Assembly (NCBI GenBank): GCA_964358555.1
Contig: CAYHQZ010000002.1
Span: 1 to 40,089, forward strand
Direction of reading: 5' to 3'
Length of the DNA: 40,089 nt
Source: an uncultured Planctomycetia bacterium
GTDB lineage: Bacteria > Planctomycetota > CAYHQZ01
Part shown: in pieces, positions 18,404 through 30,518 of the stretch
Layout: each line of letters starts with the position of its first letter
Numbering within the stretch: the first letter of the stretch is position 1
Program-made: the position numbers and the translations under genes
Notes under the pieces: generated by a model
What the model was told of the DNA's origin: nothing
The model's input: only the letters and a program-made list of their open reading frames with translations
Databases searched by the model: none

Positions 18404-20371
18404 GTGGTCGCGCTGGTGCGAGGGGCGGGGCGGCATTCAACACGCTTTTTTATTCCGATGAAATTCCGAATCCGACTCGCACCGACGACCTTTTCGGGCG
18501 GGGCTCCCGCCCAGCGGACGCTGTTTTCCGCTTCCGAATCTTCTCCTGACGCGGGGGGGCGCGCGGAACCTCCGAAGCCGAAGCGCGTTCCGGCCGAGCG
18601 CGCGCTTCCGGGCCGGCCCAAGGCGGCCGCCCCGGCTCCGCGGAAACCCCGCGCCGCCGAGAAACCGCCCTCCGCAAGCGACGATTCCGTCCCTTCCTCC
18701 GACGGCGAGGACGGCGTCCAGACGATCGCCCATGAACTGGCGAAGAAGCAGAAGGAAATCTCCGTCGCCGAGTTCTTCTCGAAGAACCGCCACCTCCTCG
18801 GCTTCGACTCGCCGAAGAAGGCGCTGCTCACCGCGGTGAAGGAGGCGGTGGACAACGCGCTGGATGCCTGCGAGGAGGCCAAGGTCCTGCCGGATATCGA
18901 GGTCGAAATCAAGCAGCTGGAGCAGGAGGATCGCTTCTCGCTGCGCGTCCGCGACAACGGCCCGGGCATCGTCCGCGCCCAGATCCCGCGCATTTTCGGC
19001 AAGCTGCTCTACGGCTCGAAGTTCCACCGCCTGAAGATGTCCCGCGGCCAGCAGGGCATCGGGATCTCGGCGGCCGGGATGTACGGCCAGATGACGACCG
19101 GCAAGCCCGTCCGGATCACGAGCCGGATCTCCGCGCGCCGCCCCGCCCAGTATTTCGAGATCCTCATCGACACCGGCAAGAACGAGCCGGTGGTCGCGAA
19201 GGAGGAGGAGGTCGCCGACCCGGGCTTCTCGCGCGGCACCGAAGTCGAGCTGACGCTGGTCGGGCGCTGGACGAAGGGCCGTGCCAGCGTCGACGAGTAC
19301 CTGGAGCAGACGGCCATCGCGAATCCGCACGTCGAGATGGTCTACACGGCGCCCGACGGGACGAAGCTCAAATTCCCGCGAGGCTCGAAGGTCCTGCCCG
19401 CCGAGCCCACGGAAATCCAGCCCCATCCGCGCGGCATCGAGTTGGGCATGCTCATGAAGATGCTCAAGGAGACGCAGTCGAGGCGCCTCTCGGCCTTCCT
19501 GCACACGGAATTCTCGCGCGTGTCCACGGCGGTCGCGCGGCGACTCTGCCAGACGGCGAATCTTTCCGACAAGGCGCGCCCCAAGCGCGTTTCCCACGAG
19601 GAGGCAGAAAGGCTCTTCCAGGCGATCCAGAACTCGAAGTTCATGAATCCGCCGACGGATTGCCTCTCGCCGATCGGCGAGCCCCAGATCCTCGCGGGCC
19701 TGAAAAAGGAGGTCCGCGCGCACTTCTATACGGCCGTGACGCGTCCCCCGTCGGTCTATCGCGGCCGGCCCTTCCAGATCGAGGCGGGACTCGCCTACGG
19801 GGGCGAGATGACGCCGAAGGAGGGAGAGGAGACCGGCGCCCAGGAGCCGGTGCGGCTCCTTCGCTTCGCGAACCGCGTCCCGCTCATCTACCAGCAGGGC
19901 GCCTGCGGAATCACCGAGTCCGTCATCGATACCGCCTGGCGCTCCTACGGCCTCTCGCAGCACAAGGGCGCGCTGCCCCTCGGCCCCGCGGTCCTCTTCG
20001 TCCACTTCGCCTCCGTCTGGGTCCCGTTCACGAGCGAGTCGAAGGAGGCCATCGCGCACTATCCGGAGCTCACGACCGAGATGAAGCGCGCGCTCCAGGA
20101 GGCCGGCCGGCGGCTCGGGACGTATCTTAGCCGCCGCCGCAACGCCGAAACCCAGATGAAGCGGCGCGCCGTCTTCACCCACTACGTCGGCGAGGTCGCC
20201 TCGAGCGTTTCGCGCCTCACGGGCGAGCCGCGACAGGCCCTGTACGATCAGCTCCTGAAAATCGCCGAGAAGAAGACGAAGGCGGCAGAACTGGCCGACC
20301 GCAAGGTCGCCGACGGCTACGACTCGATCGCGGACCTGCCCAGCACGATCGTCATCGAGGAGGAGAGCTAG
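18404..20371 (+). CDS. top6B: DNA topoisomerase VI subunit B (GHKL/Bergerat ATPase) with a basic Pro-rich N-terminal extension
   Basis: ISVAEFFSKNRHLLGFD, the N-box KEAVDNALDA, the G1 box VRDNGPGI, KLLYGSKFH and the G2 box SRGQQGIGIS are all present. The start is uncertain: GTG 18404 or ATG 18458. Either way about 85-100 residues (..PPKPKRVPAERALPGRPKAAAPAPRKPRAAEKPP..) precede the conserved core. Confidence 0.92.
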   Translation: MVALVRGAGRHSTRFFIPMKFRIRLAPTTFSGGAPAQRTLFSASESSPDAGGRAEPPKPKRVPAERALPGRPKAAAPAPRKPRAAEKPPSASDDSVPSSDGEDGVQTIAHELAKKQKEISVAEFFSKNRHLLGFDSPKKALLTAVKEAVDNALDACEEAKVLPDIEVEIKQLEQEDRFSLRVRDNGPGIVRAQIPRIFGKLLYGSKFHRLKMSRGQQGIGISAAGMYGQMTTGKPVRITSRISARRPAQYFEILIDTGKNEPVVAKEEEVADPGFSRGTEVELTLVGRWTKGRASVDEYLEQTAIANPHVEMVYTAPDGTKLKFPRGSKVLPAEPTEIQPHPRGIELGMLMKMLKETQSRRLSAFLHTEFSRVSTAVARRLCQTANLSDKARPKRVSHEEAERLFQAIQNSKFMNPPTDCLSPIGEPQILAGLKKEVRAHFYTAVTRPPSVYRGRPFQIEAGLAYGGEMTPKEGEETGAQEPVRLLRFANRVPLIYQQGACGITESVIDTAWRSYGLSQHKGALPLGPAVLFVHFASVWVPFTSESKEAIAHYPELTTEMKRALQEAGRRLGTYLSRRRNAETQMKRRAVFTHYVGEVASSVSRLTGEPRQALYDQLLKIAEKKTKAAELADRKVADGYDSIADLPSTIVIEEES

Positions 20372-20374
20372 ACG

Positions 20375-21481
20375 ATGGCGCGAGACAAGGCGAAGGAGGC
20401 GGAGGTCGCGCGGCGCGTGGTGGCGCTCGGCGAAATCGTCGTCCGTGCGGCGGCGGCAGGCGAGGATCCCACGTTCAAGATTCCCATCCGGGCGCTCTCG
20501 AACTCCCGCTGGAACCCGAAACGCTCCATCATCGAACTCGGCGACGCCACGCAGGAGCGATCTCTCTTCGACCTCGGCATGGCGAAGAAGTTCATGCAGT
20601 CCTGCCTTGTCGCCTCCGGCGTGCGGGATCTCCTGAAGGAACAGAAGACCACCAGCATCCGCGATCTCTTCTACATGGTGAAGCACACCATCCCCGGCAC
20701 CGACGAGAACTCGTTTGACGAGCAGGAGGAGTCCGACGCCGTCATCGAGGACCTCGAGGTGACGGTGAACTCGCTCCGGGAGGAACTGCACCTCTTCGCC
20801 GAGAACCGAGGCGCGCTGGTCGGCGAAATCACGATCCGGGATCGCGGCGACATCATCGACGGCCGGAGAATGGGCTCCGGCGGCTGGTCCATCCCGTCCA
20901 TCGTCGAGCCGGAAGTCATCGAGTTCGTGAAGTGCACGGCGAAATACATCCTGCTGGTCGAGAAGGGCGCGGTCTGGAACCGCTTCAACGAGGACAAATA
21001 CTGGGAGCGGGAGAAGTGCATCCTGGTCCACGGCCAGGGACAGCCCCCGCGCGGGGTCCGGCGGCTTTTATCGCGGATGACGAGCGAATTGCGCCTTCCG
21101 CTCTATGTCCTCGTCGACAACGACCCCTGGGGCTACTACATCTACTCCGTCGTCAAGCAGGGGTCGATCAATCTCGCCTACGAGTCCTTGCGGATGGCGG
21201 TCCCCTCCGCCCGCTTCGTGGGCCTCTCCGCGTTCGATCCGGAGAAATACCGGCTCCCGAAGGACGTCCAGATCCGGCTCGATCCCAAGGACGTCTCGCG
21301 CGCCAAGGAAATCATGGCCTACCCCTGGTTCAAGGGCCGCCGCGGCTGGCCGCGCGAAATCAAGAAGATGCTCGACAACGGCTTCAAACTCGAAATCGAA
21401 GCCCTGTCCCGCAAGGGCATCTCGTTTATCACCGAGGAATACCTGCCGAGGAAGCTGAAGGAGAAGGACTGGCTGGAGTAG
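20375..21481 (+). CDS. top6A: DNA topoisomerase VI subunit A (Spo11-type)
   Basis: ATG lies 3 nt after the top6B stop, with GAGGAGGAG upstream. The catalytic-Tyr region is SIRDLFYMVKH. The Toprim glutamate is in ILLVEKGAVW and the DxD is in LYVLVDNDPWGYYIYS. Confidence 0.93.
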   Translation: MARDKAKEAEVARRVVALGEIVVRAAAAGEDPTFKIPIRALSNSRWNPKRSIIELGDATQERSLFDLGMAKKFMQSCLVASGVRDLLKEQKTTSIRDLFYMVKHTIPGTDENSFDEQEESDAVIEDLEVTVNSLREELHLFAENRGALVGEITIRDRGDIIDGRRMGSGGWSIPSIVEPEVIEFVKCTAKYILLVEKGAVWNRFNEDKYWEREKCILVHGQGQPPRGVRRLLSRMTSELRLPLYVLVDNDPWGYYIYSVVKQGSINLAYESLRMAVPSARFVGLSAFDPEKYRLPKDVQIRLDPKDVSRAKEIMAYPWFKGRRGWPREIKKMLDNGFKLEIEALSRKGISFITEEYLPRKLKEKDWLE

Positions 21482-21675: not shown

Positions 21676-23376
21676 ATGCTACGGGCGCTGAAGAACTTCG
21701 GGCCGCTTTCGTTGTTCGTCCTCGTGACTCTCCTGGCCGCGGGGGATGCGTTCTCGGCGGCCAAGGGCAAGGGCAAGAAGGCGCCGGAAGCCCCGGCCGA
21801 GGCCCCGCCGGCGGATCCGGCCGCGGTGCCGCCGCCCCCGCCGCTCGCCGAGTACATCGAGGACGCGGCGAATGGCTTCAAGATCCAGCCCCCGAACGGC
21901 TGGACCCGCGAGGACCCGACGGTCGTGACGCTGCCGACGGGGATCGTGATGTCCTACGTCGGGACGCCGTCCGTCGCCGGCACGCGGGCGCCCCGCTATT
22001 ACGTCTTCATCGAGACGAACGCCGATACCCTCGACGCCTACTGGGCCGGCAAGAAGGCCGCCGCCGCGGCCGCGAGCACGACGTTCAAGGAGGTCGTTCC
22101 GCCCGCGCTCGTGAAGCATCCCAACGTGGCCCTCGGCACGCCGGTCCCCGCCGACGAGCCTTCCGAGGCCCTTTACGTCCAGACGGCGGACACCGAGAAG
22201 GAAGCCACCGTCCAGACCCTCGAGGTCTTCTGCGCGTTCCCGGACGGCGCCCGGAAGCTCGTCCTGATCTGCTCCGCCCTCCAGGCGGACTACCCCAAGC
22301 TCTACTCCGACATCTTCGTGCCCTCCTTCAAGACGATGCGGTTCGTCGAGAAGCCGCCGGGCTACGAGGGGCCGGGGCCGGACCCGGGCACGACGACGCC
22401 GCCGCCGGACTCCGGCGGGACCGAGGAGCCGACGCCCCCCGTCGAGGAGCCCGCCCCGAAGACGGGCAAGACCCCCGTGGAGCCCCCGGCGGCCCCGGAG
22501 AACACCCCGCCCGATCTCGGCAAGCTCCCGGCGCAGGTCCGCGTCCCCATCGGCGAGACCGCGACGATCAAGCTCCAGGCGACCGATCCCGACAAGAAGG
22601 AGAGGCTGACCTTCTCCGCGGATCCGGTGCCGGAGGGCGCGACGATCAATCCGAAGACGGGGCTGTTCAACTTCTCGCCCAAGGGCAAGCCCGGCTCGAT
22701 CACGGTGACCTTCACGGTGACCGACTCCCAGGGCGCCTCGGATACGGAGGTCGTCGAGTTCGTCGTCCTGCGGGGCGGCCCGCCGGCGATCACCGTCGAG
22801 GGAAGCACCGAAGGCAAGGCCGGCGAGACGGTCCGGTTCACGGTGACCGCGGCCTATCCGGACGGGACGAAGGTGCCGGTGACCGCCGTCAAGATCCCCA
22901 AGACCGCGAAATTTGCCGCCGGCGTCTTCACGATGAAGTCCCCCGTCGCCGGCGAATTCCCCGTGGTCTTCACCGCGACGGACGCCTCGGGACAGAAGGC
23001 GACGGAGACCGTCACGGTGGCGTTCAAGGCCGTTCGGACGGACCCGCCCAAGATTTCCGTGGAGGGCAGCCGCGAGGCGAAGGTCGGCGAGACGATCCGA
23101 CTGACCGTGAAGGCCGTCCTTTCCGACGGCACGAAAGTGTCCGTGGCTGCCGCGAAGCTTCCCAAGGGCGCCAAGTTCGCCGGCGGCGTCTTCACGATGA
23201 AGTCGAGCCAGCCGGGCGAGCACTCGCTGACCTTCACGGCGCTGGACCCGGCGACGACGCTGAAGGCCACGGAGAGCGTTTCGATCTCGTTCAAGGGAGC
23301 CGCTCCGCCGCCTCCGCCCCCGCCGCCGGACAAGAAGAAGCCTCCCGCCAAGGAGAAAGGAACCACGCCTCCGTGA
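21676..23376 (+). CDS. secreted protein with a cadherin/He_PIG-like Ig domain and two tandem Ig-like repeats
   Basis: GGAGGA SD before ATG 21676. The signal peptide is MLRALKNFGPLSLFVLVTLLAAGDAFSA. IGETATIKLQATDPDKKERLTFSADPVPEGATINPKTGLFNFSP...VTFTVTDSQGASD is a putative-Ig (dystroglycan/cadherin-like) signature. Two 88-aa repeats follow, and the tail is poly-Pro/Lys. Confidence 0.85.
   Translation: MLRALKNFGPLSLFVLVTLLAAGDAFSAAKGKGKKAPEAPAEAPPADPAAVPPPPPLAEYIEDAANGFKIQPPNGWTREDPTVVTLPTGIVMSYVGTPSVAGTRAPRYYVFIETNADTLDAYWAGKKAAAAAASTTFKEVVPPALVKHPNVALGTPVPADEPSEALYVQTADTEKEATVQTLEVFCAFPDGARKLVLICSALQADYPKLYSDIFVPSFKTMRFVEKPPGYEGPGPDPGTTTPPPDSGGTEEPTPPVEEPAPKTGKTPVEPPAAPENTPPDLGKLPAQVRVPIGETATIKLQATDPDKKERLTFSADPVPEGATINPKTGLFNFSPKGKPGSITVTFTVTDSQGASDTEVVEFVVLRGGPPAITVEGSTEGKAGETVRFTVTAAYPDGTKVPVTAVKIPKTAKFAAGVFTMKSPVAGEFPVVFTATDASGQKATETVTVAFKAVRTDPPKISVEGSREAKVGETIRLTVKAVLSDGTKVSVAAAKLPKGAKFAGGVFTMKSSQPGEHSLTFTALDPATTLKATESVSISFKGAAPPPPPPPPDKKKPPAKEKGTTPP
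22780..23307 (+). repeat. 2 x 264-nt tandem coding repeat (88-aa Ig-like modules)
   Basis: PPAITVEGSTEGKAGETVRFTVTAAYPDGTKVPVTAVKIPKTAKFAAGVFTMKSPVAGEFPVVFTATDASGQKATETVTVAFKAV aligns with PPKISVEGSREAKVGETIRLTVKAVLSDGTKVSVAAAKLPKGAKFAGGVFTMKSSQPGEHSLTFTALDPATTLKATESVSISFKGA. The unit starts are at 22780 and 23044. Confidence 0.75.
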
Positions 23377-24110
23377 ACGCGACATCCCGTTTCCTTGCCG
23401 CTGGAGCGATTGCCTGCGCCTTCGGGCTGCTTTCTTTGACTCCCGCGTCGGCCCAGGAGGATCTCGTGGGCCGCCCGCCGGGGCCTTCGCCATCGAATTC
23501 CGATGCGACCCTGCCGGCGCCGCCCGACCCCAAGCAGGACCTCCGGACGTTCGCGAACAAGCTCTTCTCGATCATCGAATTCGGCGATGACCAGGCCGAG
23601 AAGATGCGGTCCCGGGTGAACGAGATGATCCAGGCCCGCCTCGTTCCGGGGCAGAAGGACGCCTTCCAGAAGGCCACCCAGGGCGTCGCCGGGGACGCAA
23701 AGCCCTCCGAGGTCGCCAAGCGCTACGTCCAGATCCTGCTCGACAACAAGGCCGTCGATCTGCTGCCCAGCCAGGCGGTCGGCTTCCTGGAGGATCTCCG
23801 GAAGGCCGCGCAGGAAATCCTGACGCAGGAGCAGCTCGTCGCGATCGGGATGGCGGAGAAGCCCGCCACGCCGGCGGATCTCCCGAAGCCCCCCGCGACG
23901 ACGGGCGGGACCGGCGGAGACACGACGCCTCCGGACGCGGGGACGACGCCCCCGGCGGACGGCGACAAGAAGCCCGCGACCGGCGGCAAGAAGACCCCGG
24001 GCAAGAAGACCCCGGGCAAGAAGACGCCGGGCAAAAAGACGCCGGGCAAGAAGGGCGGCGGGGAGAAGAAGCCGCCGCCGGCGCCGAAGGAAGAGGGCGG
24101 GGCGGAATGA
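23373..24110 (+). CDS. secreted protein with a Pro-rich linker and a (GKKTP)n lysine-repeat tail
   Basis: The GTG at 23373 overlaps the upstream stop (GTGA). The signal peptide is NATSRFLAAGAIACAFGLLSLTPASAQE. The C-terminus is ...GGKKTPGKKTPGKKTPGKKTPGKKGGGEKKPPPAPKEEGGAE. The stop overlaps the next start (ATGA). Confidence 0.7.
   Translation: MNATSRFLAAGAIACAFGLLSLTPASAQEDLVGRPPGPSPSNSDATLPAPPDPKQDLRTFANKLFSIIEFGDDQAEKMRSRVNEMIQARLVPGQKDAFQKATQGVAGDAKPSEVAKRYVQILLDNKAVDLLPSQAVGFLEDLRKAAQEILTQEQLVAIGMAEKPATPADLPKPPATTGGTGGDTTPPDAGTTPPADGDKKPATGGKKTPGKKTPGKKTPGKKTPGKKGGGEKKPPPAPKEEGGAE
23985..24053 (+). repeat. 15-nt tandem repeat, about 4.5 units (ggcaagaagaccccg), encoding GKKTP
   Basis: The units start at 23985, 24000, 24015 and 24030, with a partial unit at 24045. 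Only third-position differences separate them (acc/acg, aag/aaa). Confidence 0.85.
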
Positions 24111-27100
24111 GCGGCCCTCCTTCAAGGGAGGAAGCCGAGACCGGACTTCCGCGCGGGCCGGCCGCCGCCGGCCTGTCGATTGGCTTTGGCGTCGAGACGC
24201 TCCTGCTGCTGGTCTTCTTCCTTGCCTCCGGCGCTTCGGGGCTCATCCTCGAGGTTGTCTGGAGCCGGATGCTTACCCTCGTTTTCGGCTCCACGTCGCT
24301 CGCCTACGCGACGGTCCTCGCCGCATTCATGGGGGGGCTCGCCCTCGGGGCGTGGCTCGCCAGCCGGTACGCAGATCGGATCCGGGATCCCTTGCTTGCC
24401 TACGGGATTCTCGAGGGTGCCGTGGCGGTCTTCGCCCTGCTGCTGCCTTTCTATCTCGACACCCTCGTTCCCCTCTACCAGATGATCTGGCGGGAATGGA
24501 ACCCGTCCTTCCTCACGTTCAGCCTCCTTCGATTTGTCCTCGCGGCCTCCGCCCTGATCCTCCCGACGACGTGCATGGGGGCGACGCTCCCCATCCTGGG
24601 ACGGTATTACGCCGAGCGACGCTCGGGGCTGGGGCTCCAGGTTTCTCACCTCTATGCGGCGAATACATGGGGGGCGTTCGCGGGAACGCTGGCGGCCGGC
24701 TTCGCGCTGCTTCCGCTGCTCGGGGAGTCCGCTACCATCCGCGCCGCCGTGGGGATCAACCTGGCGATCTTCCTCGTCATCGCGGGCCTGCGGCTCGCGG
24801 GGGCGGGGCGCCCAGGGGAGCCCGCCTCGAAGCCCCGGGAGGGGGATGCGCCGCTCCTCGCGCTTTCGCCCCTGCCCCGGAGCGTGGTCCTGGCCGCGAC
24901 GGCGGCCTACTTCGGCTCGGGCCTCGCCGGGATGGCCGCCCAGATCGCCTGGACGCGCTCGCTGTCGCTCCTGATCGGGTCCTCCGTCTACGCCTTCACG
25001 GCGGTCGTGGCGGCCTATCTCGTGGGGATCGCGGCCGGCTCGTCGGTCTACGCCGCATGGGGCCGCCGCGTCCAGCGCGATCCCTCCTGGCTCGCCGGGG
25101 CCCACCTTTGCGCCGGGGCCTGCATGATCGCCGGGATCTATCTCTTCCCGGTCCTGCCCTACCTTTCTTTCGACCTGCATTCAAAGTTCCAGGACTACCC
25201 GCGGATCATCCTGCTCGTCCAGGTTCTGCTCTCGATCCTCCTGATCTTCCCGGCGGCTTTTTTCCTCGGCGGGATCTTTCCCGCAACCGCCAAGATCTGC
25301 GCCCGTTCCCCCGGGCGGGTCGGCCGCGACATCGGCCGGGCCTACGCCGCCAACACCGTCGGCGCGATCGTCGGCTCGTTCCTCGGCGGGTTCATCTTCC
25401 TGTTCGTGGACGCCCTCGGATTCCAGGACGGGCTCTGTCTCGGCCGGCCGATCCTCGTCTGGACGATCGGGCTCGGCGGGCTGTGCCTCTGCCTCGGCGC
25501 GCTCGTCGTGTCGCTCTCGGGGAGCCGCCCCGGCATCGCCCCGGAGGCGCGCGGCGGCGTCCGCCAGATCGCGCTGGCGGCGATCTACCTGCCGGTGCTG
25601 CTGCTGGGGCTCCTGCCCGCCTACATGGAGTCCGGCGAGTTTTCGGACCTCGCGCGCAACCTGGGCCTTACGAAGCGGCCGCCGGGGGAGCGGATCCTCG
25701 TTCTCGTCGGGCCCGAGCGGGGCATTTCCTATCACCTGACGAACGTGACGCCTGCGGATCCCGCGACGCGCCGGGAACGGGACTGGACCATCGGGCGGGA
25801 TTCAAAGAACCGGATCCCGCTCTCCGACCCGTCCGTTCCGGACCGGGCGGCGAAGCTCTTTGTCGAGGGGGATGCCTGGACGATCGAGGCCCTCTCGCCC
25901 GGCGTCCAGGTGGAGGGGCGGCCCCTCGAGAAGGGCTCGAAGAATATCCTGGCGTTCGGGGATCGGATCCTGGTCGGCCGGACGATGCTTGCGTTCGAGC
26001 GGGATCCCGGAGTTCGCTTGTGGGACCCCACGCTCATGTCGAGCGGGGTCTTCTACTACGTGGACAGCGACGATGGCGCGGATCCCCGCCGCGACGACGA
26101 CCCCGTCTTCTACCGCGAGGGCGTCACGACGACCGTCACGGTCTTCCAGGACTCCATCCGCGAGGACAACCTCTACTACCTCGTCGTGAACGGCAAGGTC
26201 GACGCCTCGACCCGGGGCGACATGAAGACCCAGGTCCTCCTCGCGCACCTGCCGATCCTGGCGCACCCGAGCCGCAGCCCCAAGGACGTCCTCGTCATCG
26301 GGTGGGGCTCGGGGACCACGGTCGGGTCCTGCCTCAACTACCCGCCCTCGGAGGTGCGAAAGGTTCTCGCCTGCGAACTGGAGAAGTCCGTGATCGAGGG
26401 GTCGCGCTGGTTCGAGAGCGTGAACTCGAAGCCCCGTGAGCATCTGGCGACCGGCCGCCTCGAGATCCAGGCCAACGACGCCCGGAACTATCTCCTCGCC
26501 ACCGATCGGATGTTTGACGTCGTGATTTCCGAGCCGTCGAACCCCTGGATTTCCGGGGCCGCGAAGCTCTTCACGCGCGAGTTCTACGAGTCCGCCTCCC
26601 GGCGCCTGAATCCCGACGGGATCTGGTGCCAGTGGATCCAGGCCTACGGCCTCAAGCGCAGCGACTTCAAGACGCTGCTCGCGACGTTCCGGGAGACCTT
26701 CCCGCACGTCGCGGTGTTCACGGACTACGAGTCGGACCTCTACGTCCTGGGCTCCAAGTCCCCGCTCGCCTTCGACGTCGCCGCCATCGAGAAGGTCCTT
26801 GCCGACCACCCGGGCGTCTCCGGCGATCTGGCCCGGAAGAACGTCGACATCACCGGCGTCCACGACCTCCTGGCCCACCACATCTTCGGGAGCCGGACGA
26901 TGAACGAGTTCCTCGGGAAGGGCGCGATCGCCCTGAACACGGATGACAACGCGCGCATCGAGTTTTCCACGCCCCTTTCGCTCCTTTCCGACGAGCGTTC
27001 CGAGATCGACAGCGACCTCGTCGGGGCCATCGATCCCGAGGGCGCGCCGTTCAAGACGGATCCGGCCCGGCCCCACTTGAAGGACGAACTCCTGCTCCGC

Positions 27101-27499
27101 ATCGCCGCGTGGCACAGCGCCGAGGCCCGCCACCCCGCGGCGCTCGAGATGCTCAACGGCGTGATCGGCCGGGATCCGACCCTTGCGGGCGCCTACGCGG
27201 AGCGCGCCCGGATCCGGCTCGCGAAGGCGAAGACCGAGAAGCGGACCGCCCTCGAATCGCTCGAGGATCCCGTGGCGCCCTTCCGGCCCGCCGCCGACGA
27301 TCTCGAGGCCGCCCTGGACATCGATCCGACGGACCCGCGCGCGCAGGTCGCCCTCCGGGAATTCCTCAAGACCCTGGGGGCGAACGCGTATCTCTTCGAG
27401 GAACTCAAGCCCTACCTGCCCAAGGAGCCTCCGTCGGAGGAGGAAGCGCCGCCCGCCGCGCCCGGGGATCCCATCGAGGCGCCGAAGGCACCGGAATAG
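24107..27499 (+). CDS. fused polytopic-membrane / spermidine-synthase-like (aminopropyltransferase-fold) protein with an FHA-like insert and C-terminal TPR
   Basis: About 12 or more hydrophobic helices span 24180-25640. An FHA-like segment lies at 25688-26010. The methyltransferase-fold PABS core is DVLVIGWGSGTTVGSCL...VLACELEKSVIE...FDVVISEPSNPWISGAAKLFTREFYESASRRLNPDGIWCQWIQAY. TPR-like helices lie near 27050-27400. Confidence 0.88.
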   Translation: MSGPPSREEAETGLPRGPAAAGLSIGFGVETLLLLVFFLASGASGLILEVVWSRMLTLVFGSTSLAYATVLAAFMGGLALGAWLASRYADRIRDPLLAYGILEGAVAVFALLLPFYLDTLVPLYQMIWREWNPSFLTFSLLRFVLAASALILPTTCMGATLPILGRYYAERRSGLGLQVSHLYAANTWGAFAGTLAAGFALLPLLGESATIRAAVGINLAIFLVIAGLRLAGAGRPGEPASKPREGDAPLLALSPLPRSVVLAATAAYFGSGLAGMAAQIAWTRSLSLLIGSSVYAFTAVVAAYLVGIAAGSSVYAAWGRRVQRDPSWLAGAHLCAGACMIAGIYLFPVLPYLSFDLHSKFQDYPRIILLVQVLLSILLIFPAAFFLGGIFPATAKICARSPGRVGRDIGRAYAANTVGAIVGSFLGGFIFLFVDALGFQDGLCLGRPILVWTIGLGGLCLCLGALVVSLSGSRPGIAPEARGGVRQIALAAIYLPVLLLGLLPAYMESGEFSDLARNLGLTKRPPGERILVLVGPERGISYHLTNVTPADPATRRERDWTIGRDSKNRIPLSDPSVPDRAAKLFVEGDAWTIEALSPGVQVEGRPLEKGSKNILAFGDRILVGRTMLAFERDPGVRLWDPTLMSSGVFYYVDSDDGADPRRDDDPVFYREGVTTTVTVFQDSIREDNLYYLVVNGKVDASTRGDMKTQVLLAHLPILAHPSRSPKDVLVIGWGSGTTVGSCLNYPPSEVRKVLACELEKSVIEGSRWFESVNSKPREHLATGRLEIQANDARNYLLATDRMFDVVISEPSNPWISGAAKLFTREFYESASRRLNPDGIWCQWIQAYGLKRSDFKTLLATFRETFPHVAVFTDYESDLYVLGSKSPLAFDVAAIEKVLADHPGVSGDLARKNVDITGVHDLLAHHIFGSRTMNEFLGKGAIALNTDDNARIEFSTPLSLLSDERSEIDSDLVGAIDPEGAPFKTDPARPHLKDELLLRIAAWHSAEARHPAALEMLNGVIGRDPTLAGAYAERARIRLAKAKTEKRTALESLEDPVAPFRPAADDLEAALDIDPTDPRAQVALREFLKTLGANAYLFEELKPYLPKEPPSEEEAPPAAPGDPIEAPKAPE

Positions 27500-29492: not shown

Positions 29493-30518
29493 CTACGGCG
29501 TAGCCGGCCGGACGGGGCTCTTCGGCCGGACACCCGGGGCGTCGGAGGCGTAGAAGCGGTCGAGGATCTCCTTCAGGCCCTTCTCGCTATTGAGCGCGAG
29601 GAACGCCGCCCGGAGCTCGTCGTGGGCGGGGTGGAACCGGGCGTAGCGGATTCCGAACTTCCGGAAGAACCGCGCCGCGCGGTTCGGCCCGTGGATTCCG
29701 GCCGCGAGGGATGCGTGCTCGGCCACGGCGTCGCGCTGCTCATGCACGGTGGGGGGCTCGGGGAGGAGGCGGCCCTCGAGCAGGGCGCGGGCCTCGCGGA
29801 AGATCCAGGGGTTGCCGATGGCCCCGCGCGCGATCGTGACGCCGTCGACGCCCGTCTCCTTGAGCATCCGGACGGCGTCCTCGGCCGAGAACAGATCCCC
29901 GCTGCCGACGAGCGTGCGCCCGGGGTGGCGTCCCTTCGCCTCCGCGAGCACCCCCCAGTCGCTGAAGCCCGCGTAGCGCTGCCGCACCGTGCGGGGGTGC
30001 AGGATCACCGCGTCGGCGCCCCGCGCGTAGGCGCCGTCGAGAATTTCGAGAAAGCGCTCCCGGCTTTCCGCCGAGTCGTCGAGGCCGCGGCGCAGCTTCA
30101 CCGAGAAGGGGATCCCCGGCGGCACCGCTTCGCGGACGCGCGCCACGATCCCGAGGGCGAGCGCGGGGTCGGAGAGGATCCACCCGCCGCGCTTGCGGCC
30201 CAGCACCTTCGGAACGGGGCAGGCGAAGTTGAGATCGATCGCGTCGAATCCGGCGGAGAGCAGCGCCTTCGCCGCGTCCTCCATCGGCGCCGCCTCGCCG
30301 CCCATGATCTGCGCCCCGACCGGATGCTCGTCGGGATGGATCCCGAGGTGCCGCTTCGGCCAGCGCCCCCCGAAGAGGATCAGCCGATCCAGCGCCGCCC
30401 CCGCGAACGCGAACGGCGCCCCCCGCCTCCGCGCGACGATCCGCATCGAGAGGTCGCTGTATCCCGACAGCGAGGCCTGGAAGAAAGGCGCGTCGAGAAC
30501 GAGCGTGCCGAGGCGCAT
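29493..30518 (-). CDS. tRNA-dihydrouridine synthase (Dus family)
   Basis: GAQIMGGEAAPMEDAAKALLSAGFDAIDLNFACPVPKVLGRKRGGWIL carries the catalytic Cys context. Also present are FSVKLRRG, AVILHPRT and VDGVTIARGAIGNPWIF. Confidence 0.9.
   Translation of the reverse strand: MRLGTLVLDAPFFQASLSGYSDLSMRIVARRRGAPFAFAGAALDRLILFGGRWPKRHLGIHPDEHPVGAQIMGGEAAPMEDAAKALLSAGFDAIDLNFACPVPKVLGRKRGGWILSDPALALGIVARVREAVPPGIPFSVKLRRGLDDSAESRERFLEILDGAYARGADAVILHPRTVRQRYAGFSDWGVLAEAKGRHPGRTLVGSGDLFSAEDAVRMLKETGVDGVTIARGAIGNPWIFREARALLEGRLLPEPPTVHEQRDAVAEHASLAAGIHGPNRAARFFRKFGIRYARFHPAHDELRAAFLALNSEKGLKEILDRFYASDAPGVRPKSPVRPATP

Follow-up and report, generated by a model that had tools for sequence, protein, structure and literature searches.

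An uncultured planctomycete encodes lysine-rich exported proteins together with a membrane-fused, spermidine-synthase-fold protein that does not appear to be an aminopropyltransferase

Introduction

What does a spermidine-synthase-fold protein do when it is fused to a polytopic membrane domain and encoded directly behind lysine-rich exported proteins? The question is raised by three consecutive genes (genes 1–3, positions 21,676 to 27,499) in a 40,089-nucleotide stretch of DNA from an uncultured Planctomycetia bacterium (assembly GCA_964358555.1, contig CAYHQZ010000002.1, positions 1 to 40,089 of the forward strand). This stretch, hereafter the window, is contig C2 of a metagenome-assembled genome of 4.1 Mb (469 contigs, 85.6% complete, 69% GC), which represents an uncultured lineage whose nearest relative among the genomes compared is no closer than phylum level. 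An earlier, sequence-only reading of the locus had proposed that the product of gene 3 uses decarboxylated S-adenosylmethionine (dcSAM) to make polyamines, or to aminopropylate the lysine-rich tails of its neighbours in a silaffin- or hypusine-like manner, giving a polycationic matrix. Our analysis supports that interpretation in part: its anatomy is right, and its aminopropyl or polyamine chemistry is not. The explanation that we put forward, with a probability of about 0.45, is an envelope operon with an outward-facing, membrane-anchored transferase of the S-adenosylmethionine (SAM) type, probably N-methylating an exported or envelope substrate; the identity of the cofactor and the chemistry are both what we infer from motifs and fold.

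Organisation of the operon

21676..23376, + strand: gene 1, exported protein with Ig-like repeats, 566 residues (open reading frame and translation; GC content at third codon positions, GC3, 0.93; GGAGG 7 nt before the ATG)
23373..24110, + strand: gene 2, orphan lysine-repeat protein, 245 residues (translation; GC3 0.89)
24107..27499, + strand: gene 3, fused membrane protein, 1130 residues (NF037959, 132.6 bits against a cut-off of 40; E=1.7e-38)

Genes 1 to 3 and the lipoprotein gene that follows them (gene 4, described below) are co-directional; they are flanked on one side by topoisomerase VI genes, which end at 21481, and on the other by a minus-strand gene that converges on them (29493-30518). 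A GC3 of 0.89–0.93 in the frames of genes 1–4 argues that all four are coding. As had been noted from the sequence, genes 1–3 are chained by two overlaps of 4 nt, namely GTGA (23373-23376), which holds the stop of gene 1 and the GTG start of gene 2, and ATGA (24107-24110), which holds the stop of gene 2 and the ATG start of gene 3; the first of these depends on the GTG start chosen for gene 2. Shine-Dalgarno-like sequences are present at the operon genes. Gene 4 starts 62 nt (or 104 nt) past gene 3, no terminator-like site was found between the two, and gene 4 may belong to the same transcript. The (GKKTP)4 tail of gene 2 and the lysine clusters of genes 1 and 4 were seen again in the translations, and the remainder of the anatomy described earlier (an operon of coupled genes, exported proteins, and the fusion of a polytopic membrane domain to a domain with the aminopropyltransferase fold) was borne out by the open reading frames, Pfam, AlphaFold2 (AF2) and Foldseek. 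Genes 1–3, possibly with gene 4, are best explained as a lineage-specific operon for envelope proteins.

Family and architecture of gene 3

24191..25630, + strand: membrane domain, 12 MFS-like helices and a 13th helix, residues 29-508 (AF2; alignment of 58 members)
26021..26986, + strand: spermidine-synthase-fold domain, residues ~639-960 (PF01564 E=2.4e-19, residues 710-871)
27074..27415, + strand: C-terminal helical, weakly TPR-like region, residues ~990-1103 (AF2 helices; sub-threshold TPR_19 and TPR_9)

By its sequence, gene 3 belongs to NF037959, the NCBIfam family 'fused MFS/spermidine synthase', which is large, named and uncharacterised. Its scores against the SpeE equivalog models TIGR00417, NF002010 and NF002956 (83, 93 and 104 bits) stay far below their cut-offs (250, 260 and 472). 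A search of 5.8 billion protein clusters returned 534 relatives at ~35–45% identity, the best at about 46%, and scanning genomes for the two peptides best conserved in the family revealed at least 594 NF037959-type loci in phyla that include Myxococcota, Acidobacteriota, Planctomycetota, Poribacteria, NC10, Binatia, Nitrospinota and Obscuribacterales.

Gene 3 aligns end to end with 57 relatives, and the AF2 model built from these 58 sequences (mean predicted local distance difference test score, pLDDT, 79; predicted template-modelling score, pTM, 0.80) comprises 13 long helices (29-508), a poorly modelled stretch (520-636), a SpeE-type domain and C-terminal helical repeats. Each half of the membrane domain starts with a YEVxWxR-type motif, and its match to MFS_1, at 29.7 bits, is below the cut-off. 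The catalytic domain matched SpeE structures in the PDB by phmmer (E=1e-16 to 1e-9), while in Foldseek only aminopropyltransferases stood at the top (1UIR, 7XIF, 2O06 and 1JQ3, also 6BQ6; probability 1.00, TM-score normalised to the target 0.63-0.75). With SpeE (PF01564; 1UIR, 2O06, 1INL/1JQ3, 3O4F) it shares an N-terminal beta-hairpin domain followed by a Rossmann-fold domain. Many relatives carry clear TPR arrays, which, together with the TPR-like tail of gene 3, suggests protein or peptide clients.

The 13 helices, the SpeE-fold domain, the TPR-like tail and the GxGSG, S(E/Q)PSNPW and NTDD motifs are thus features that gene 3 has in common with NF037959. It differs from the family in a ~130-residue insert with a degenerate FHA-like module, found in no relative examined, and in its co-translation with two orphan secreted proteins; these two features are what is new at this locus.

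The source genome holds two more membrane-fused paralogues of this spermidine-synthase-like kind. One (C279:3-2465, - strand) is MFS-like, with GLGTG and a NPPY-like motif IV, S-E-P-L-P-P-Y; the other (C124:2044-3795, - strand), a shorter protein, has GCGGGS, D-A-Y-H as its motif IV and PPPGDKGKGKGKD inserted internally.

The active site is not that of an aminopropyltransferase

26300..26314, + strand: motif I, G732-W-G-S735-G736, with Ser for the Asp/Glu of GxG(D/E)G (alignment to 2B2C, 6BQ2 and 2E5W)
26528..26548, + strand: motif IV, S808-E-P-S-N-P-W814, replacing (I/T/V)-D-S-S-D-P of SpeE (alignment to SpeE structures)

Spermidine synthases need the Asp or Glu of GxG(D/E)G to bind dcSAM, which is held by its aminopropyl amine (PMC10349129). 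This fourth position is Ser not only in gene 3 but in 99 of 102 parsable relatives, and none of the 102 has Asp or Glu there. Motif IV is altered in a similarly consistent way. The catalytic Asp and the distal-amine-binding Asp of the SpeE D-S-S-D-P align to E809 and N812 of gene 3 (Glu or Gln, then Asn, in the relatives), and S(E/Q)PSNPW is present in 93/102. As S735, P810, S811, N812, P813 and W814 are nearly invariant across the family, and an NTDD motif at 944-947 is among its most conserved parts, the alignments indicate that the motif changes are family characters and not decay. The residues of the nucleoside-cofactor pocket (G732, G736, E757, D791 and D804) are invariant, and for this reason the domain is still likely to bind a SAM-like cofactor; E757, D791 and D804, with G-x-G-x-G, are the ribose and adenine residues kept from SpeE. 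The differences from SpeE are thus GWGSG for GGGDG, EPSNPW for DSSDP, the membrane fusion and a predicted outward orientation. A check of exactly these residues had been suggested in the sequence-only reading, and those that handle dcSAM and putrescine turned out to be lost. Judged from the alignments, gene 3 is not a polyamine synthase or an aminopropyltransferase, because the acidic residue that selects dcSAM and both aspartates that handle putrescine are replaced.

The rest of the genome points the same way. S-adenosylmethionine decarboxylase (AdoMetDC; PF02675) was not found in the source genome, at its 85.6% completeness, and the control for this search was positive in 7 reference genomes; a search with the second AdoMetDC model, PF01536, was uninformative, its control being without a match. 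There is no stand-alone SpeE among the PF01564 genes of the source genome: all three of them (gene 3 and the paralogues on C124 and C279) are membrane-fused and lack the acidic dcSAM residue. Searching the source genome for nspC (TIGR01047) gave sub-threshold matches only, and no alternative spermidine route is shown.

Polyamine synthesis, or aminopropylation of the lysine-rich tails into a polycationic matrix, would agree with the SpeE fold of the domain, with the co-translation of gene 3 with lysine-tailed exported proteins, and with the predicted outward orientation, which puts enzyme and tails in one compartment. The Ser of motif I in gene 3 and 99/102 relatives and the replacement of both substrate aspartates nevertheless stand against it, as does the failure to find either AdoMetDC or a stand-alone SpeE in the source genome. 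Furthermore, 102 homologue loci contain no comparable neighbour, and lysine-rich tails occur genome-wide, away from spermidine-synthase-like genes (both described below). Taken together, these observations leave the proposal so improbable that we give it hardly any weight.

It should be noted that other membrane-fused proteins of this kind have been linked to aminopropyl chemistry. Li et al. 2019 (Biochem J 476:2579) are said to have found that membrane-fused, spermidine-synthase-like proteins clustered with AdoMetDC fail to complement an E. coli spermidine synthase deletion, and reportedly proposed that they aminopropylate an acceptor, of a nature not known, other than putrescine. These fusions resemble gene 3 in combining a polytopic membrane domain with a spermidine-synthase-like domain and in having a role outside polyamine synthesis, as do the fusions linked to DUF350. 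The AdoMetDC-linked clusters, however, encode their own class 1b AdoMetDC, hence a dcSAM donor is plausible there, whereas AdoMetDC, DUF350 and DUF4178 were neither nearby nor detected for the gene 3 locus, and its acidic residue is absent. Seven-transmembrane, transporter-like fusions of spermidine synthase are on record from DUF350 operons (PMC11237479).

Membrane orientation and an FHA-like insert

25775..26002, + strand: FHA-like insert, residues 557-632, between helix 13 and the catalytic domain (PF00498, 28.3 bits, cut-off 20.7; PF16697, Yop-YscD_cpl, 37 bits, cut-off 33.2)

In 58/58 family members, each of the 13 helices aligns and is hydrophobic, and the family mean of Lys plus Arg is 18.4 in the even (cytoplasmic, N-terminal-side) loops against 2.9 in the odd loops; the loop ahead of helix 13 is basic and the segment past it is not. 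With 13 helices and a positive-inside bias seen family-wide, the N-terminus of gene 3 is probably cytoplasmic and everything past helix 13 probably lies outside the cytoplasmic membrane, so that the catalytic domain is predicted to be periplasmic. Kyte-Doolittle hydropathy alone gave 8-14 helices across the relatives and was too noisy for use. An apparent 'extra helix 12' in gene 3 was an artefact, caused by 10 inserted residues within the alignment window; the relatives do have helix 12.

The insert between helix 13 and the catalytic domain bears on the orientation. The FHA-like module lies within an insertion of ~130 residues that is present in gene 3 relative to all 57 aligned homologues, PF00498 is found in none of its 120 best homologues, and the AF2 model has pLDDT <50 in this region. 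By direct reading of residues 566-610, the GR of FHA domains is kept (TIGRDS), S-x-x-H has become P-D-R-A and S-x-N-G has become S-P-G. Since the phosphothreonine-contacting Ser, His and Asn are replaced, the insert is unlikely to read phosphopeptides. The absence of the insert from the relatives examined, and the fact that its closest matches in the relatives searched are stand-alone FHA proteins, suggest a recent domain insertion. One of these stand-alone FHA proteins is encoded in the source genome itself (C306:1708-1938, 41% identity).

FHA domains normally work in the cytoplasm, and the insert could be taken to argue for an inward-facing domain. In that case the topology would be mispredicted, or helix 13 would be re-entrant; the catalytic domain would methylate a cytoplasmic or inner-leaflet substrate under regulation by the FHA-like module, and the position of gene 3 behind two secreted-protein genes would be meaningless. 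SAM is indeed cytoplasmic, the Pfam matches of the insert (FHA and YscD-type) are to cytoplasmic modules, and homologues of gene 3 occur in unrelated gene contexts. The argument from the FHA-like module is weakened by the replaced Ser, His and Asn, and by the absence of the insert from all relatives examined. The 13 hydrophobic helices in 58/58 members, the strong positive-inside bias, and the change from a basic loop before helix 13 to a non-basic segment after it are likewise against a cytoplasmic catalytic domain, which we consider unlikely.

Proposed function

With the outward orientation preferred, helix 13 would put the spermidine-synthase-fold domain and the TPR-like tail at the cytoplasmic membrane's outer face. 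There, the domain would catalyse SAM-type methyl transfer onto a nitrogen nucleophile of an exported or envelope substrate, the MFS-like domain might deliver the cofactor or the substrate through the membrane, and the co-translated secreted proteins of genes 1 and 2 would be candidate clients. Modification of exported material by gene 3 is possible, as its domain is predicted to be on the side of the exported proteins; the candidacy of genes 1 and 2 is based on adjacency in one lineage only.

Transfer to nitrogen is favoured by two considerations. Class I N-methyltransferases that act on amino groups carry a (D/N)PP(Y/F/W) motif, and the invariant S-N-P-W of gene 3 stands at its position. The second is a precedent within the spermidine synthase fold: to our knowledge, the only characterised enzymes of this fold without the acidic residue are protein N-methyltransferases, namely the fungal N-terminal histidine methyltransferase NHMT (AN4663 of Aspergillus nidulans) and the C-terminal domain of human METTL13. 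Both have the spermidine synthase fold without the Asp or Glu of GxG(D/E)G, as gene 3 has, and both are SAM-dependent protein N-methyltransferases (PMC10349129). NHMT, in addition, has a polytopic membrane anchor and modifies secreted proteins after removal of their signal peptides (PMC10349129). Its anchor is a fungus-specific seven-transmembrane domain, unlike the MFS-like 13-helix domain of gene 3, and it has Ile where the family of gene 3 has Ser. NHMT and METTL13 may be regarded as the closest analogues of gene 3, the likeness being one of shared fold; METTL13 is not among the best 60 PDB matches listed for gene 3, the top ones being SpeE enzymes and TPR proteins.

For modified lysine tails, the nearest bacterial precedent is mycobacterial HbhA, whose lysine-rich C-terminal repeats carry mono- and di-methyl-lysine (PMC8467707). 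The comparison is by analogy only: HbhA is a surface protein with a heavily modified Lys/Pro/Ala-rich C-terminal tail, and its sequence resembles neither gene 1 nor gene 2.

A quite different role would make gene 3 mainly a transporter, the SpeE-fold domain being a non-catalytic module that binds a ligand or presents a cofactor, for instance by exporting SAM or a related metabolite or presenting it to other envelope enzymes. Helices 1 and 7 of the MFS-like core contain conserved Glu within the membrane, and in motif IV about a third of the members have Gln instead of Glu. However, S735, P810-W814 and NTDD (944-947) are among the most conserved residues, which is typical of catalysis more than of binding alone, and the operon contains no exported SAM enzyme. 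We regard a role mainly in transport as improbable.

Several points weigh against an outward-facing methyltransferase. The Gln found in about a third of relatives leaves the catalytic role of E809 ambiguous, the topology of gene 3 is a prediction only, and the FHA-like insert speaks for a domain that faces inwards. We know of no periplasmic SAM pool, and no assayed or characterised member of NF037959 was found in the searchable literature. The operon partners, genes 1 and 2, are orphans, the same pairing is seen in no relative examined, and the overlap of gene 1 with gene 2 depends on the start picked for the latter. The most specific form of the proposal, in which an outward lysine or N-terminal methyltransferase exports SAM through its own MFS-like domain and has clients that include the co-translated proteins with Lys/Pro/Gly-rich tails, which would bear methyl-lysine like the tail of HbhA, perhaps also the similar tails elsewhere in the genome, seems to us very improbable; were it true, the periplasm would house a SAM-dependent system of protein modification.

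In thousands of genomes, proteins of NF037959 carry the annotation spermidine synthase, and this locus adds evidence that the annotation is wrong. Should the outward orientation hold, SAM-type chemistry would take place in the envelope of bacteria, a compartment with no known supply of the cofactor. The locus also offers a possible enzyme-client pairing, two small secreted proteins being co-translated with the enzyme; on its own it is of modest value, because the pairing is without comparative support and the organism is uncultured and without close relatives.

Conservation of the gene neighbourhood

A search for fused homologues that co-occur with lysine-repeat secreted proteins in other genomes had been suggested from the sequence, and the arrangement proved not to be conserved. 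The comparison covered 102 fused-homologue loci, comprising 20 from the same phylum and the 2 closest metagenomic ones (with Pfam-annotated neighbours) and 80 across many phyla. At none of the 102 was there a lysine-rich secreted neighbour like genes 1 and 2, and no partner was recurrent. The most frequent neighbours over the 80 loci, histidine kinases (12), sigma-54 regulators (10) and prepilin-type proteins (10), are generic or abundant families. Lysine-rich neighbours accounted for 19/755, and none of these was a secreted protein with a low-complexity tail adjoining the fused gene. The candidates at G014:C90 and L101 were on inspection a TPR membrane protein, a HEAT-repeat protein and an FmdB-type zinc-ribbon protein, not analogous to genes 1 and 2. 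The two paralogues in the source genome (C124 and C279) also lack such lysine-rich secreted neighbours. The sole other copy of the locus is in a second assembly of the same population (L050), and being 99.93% identical it is not independent evidence of synteny.

Prepilin-type genes, recognised by an N-terminal GFTLVELLVV motif, occur singly or in tandem just upstream of the fused gene at four loci (L054, L057, L077 and L114) from Obscuribacterales, an unclassified bacterium and NC10. Pilin-like neighbours are present within 8 kb at 10 of the 80 loci; this may be chance, as such genes are common in these phyla.

Gene 2 and its start

23985..24053, + strand: 15-nt tandem repeat GGCAAGAAGACCCCG x 4.6, encoding (GKKTP)4 (Tandem Repeats Finder score 117, 94% matches)

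The product of gene 2, a coding gene as judged from the resemblance of its GC3 (0.89) to that of the neighbouring genes, is laid out as a signal peptide (ASA|QE cleavage), a small domain of six helices (residues 53-157) and, as a tail, a disordered Pro/Thr/Gly/Lys stretch that ends in GGKKTPGKKTPGKKTPGKKTPGKKGGGEKK, that is, (GKKTP)4 followed by GKKGGGEKK. The copy number of the repeat is unchanged in the second assembly. In a single-sequence AF2 model the helices at 53-157 have pLDDT 74-85 and the tail <50, and Foldseek found no fold match for it below E=0.8. No homologue was found among 5.8 billion clustered proteins (word-indexed search) or 1.84 billion representatives (exhaustive phmmer); apart from gene 2 itself, the searches gave only two hits between low-complexity repeats, (PAKKT)n and (PGQQT)n. 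A Spy/CpxP-type LTXXQ assignment of the helical domain, suggested by 'LTQEQL', was dropped, as a Pfam scan at E up to 10 gave no usable match.

The public call of gene 2 is 214 residues long and starts at V32 (GTG 23466), and so has neither the overlap with gene 1 nor a signal peptide. If it is right, part of the three-gene chain is an artefact of annotation: gene 2 would be cytoplasmic and free of gene 1, and the remaining overlap of gene 2 with gene 3 would have no special meaning. The spacing of the ribosome-binding sequences fits the later start, with AGGAAG ~6 nt before 23466 and AAGGAG 17 nt off 23373, and GC3 over 23390-23480 fails to tell the frames apart. Nevertheless, where genes are joined by a 4-nt start/stop overlap, a Shine-Dalgarno sequence at good spacing is not required, and a canonical signal peptide (R6 in the n-region, a 16-residue hydrophobic core, ASA|QE) results from the 23373 start only; this start is, for the latter reason, preferred as the likelier one. 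An artefact of this sort seems rather improbable to us, and would not exclude any of the other explanations weighed above.

Gene 1

22528..23271, + strand: Ig-like region of gene 1 (PF05345 E=9.4e-15; PF17963 E=1.9e-12; PF00801 E=7e-8)
23305..23373, + strand: C-terminal tail of gene 1, PPPPPPPPDKKKPPAKEKGTTPP (translation)

Gene 1 encodes, in order, a signal-peptide-like N-terminus, KGKGKK, an orphan N-domain, a Pro-rich linker, three Ig-like domains and a poly-Pro/Lys tail. The first Ig-like domain (residues 285-364) is a clear He_PIG/Big_9 domain by Pfam, and the other two (~residues 371-448 and 463-532) are weaker PKD/Big_13/filamin-like repeats. The N-domain (~residues 55-235, ~180 residues) has no Pfam match and a homologue search found none; a PsbP/DUF1795-like assignment was abandoned after a Pfam scan at E up to 10 gave no usable match. 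A 91-nt tRNA-Arg(TCG) called by ARAGORN inside gene 1 (22401-22491, - strand) is a likely false positive, as Rfam sees no tRNA there.

Gene 4 and lysine-rich tails across the genome

27562 (or 27604)..29478, + strand: gene 4, lipoprotein (open reading frame; PF13229 E=1.4e-9; lipobox GWAGC by direct reading)

Gene 4 combines a right-handed beta-helix (pectate-lyase-like) with a KKKKKKRPSKK linker, and carries GGKKKKKKRPSKKG; a Pfam scan of its N-terminal half at E up to 10 gave nothing usable.

The lysine clusters of this locus had been described as standing out in so GC-rich a genome. In composition they do, but not as a trait of the locus. In a crude, GC3-based set of 2361 open reading frames from the source genome, 65 had at least 8 Lys in 30 residues, of which 19 were low-complexity stretches of K/G/P/T/A/S, 18 of them on other contigs. 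Among these 19, 12 have a signal-peptide-like N-terminus, compared with 26% of all open reading frames by the same crude rule. Tails or linkers rich in Lys, Gly and Pro, such as (GK)n, (KKGG)n and KKPP, were found on at least 18 other contigs (for example C319:1717-2616, C147:6396-6707, C225:3367-4692 and C81:10286-12295). Such lysine-rich tails and linkers are a genome-wide habit of the organism's mostly exported proteins and not special to this locus, so two of them close together are unremarkable. Further examples of these genome-wide stretches are GKGKGKGKGKDKGKGK, KKGGKKGGKKGGKK and GKKPPAPGDPADKKPPTKKKKK.

Directly upstream of the operon lies the topoisomerase VI B/A gene pair (18404-21481), in the same order as in the second assembly.

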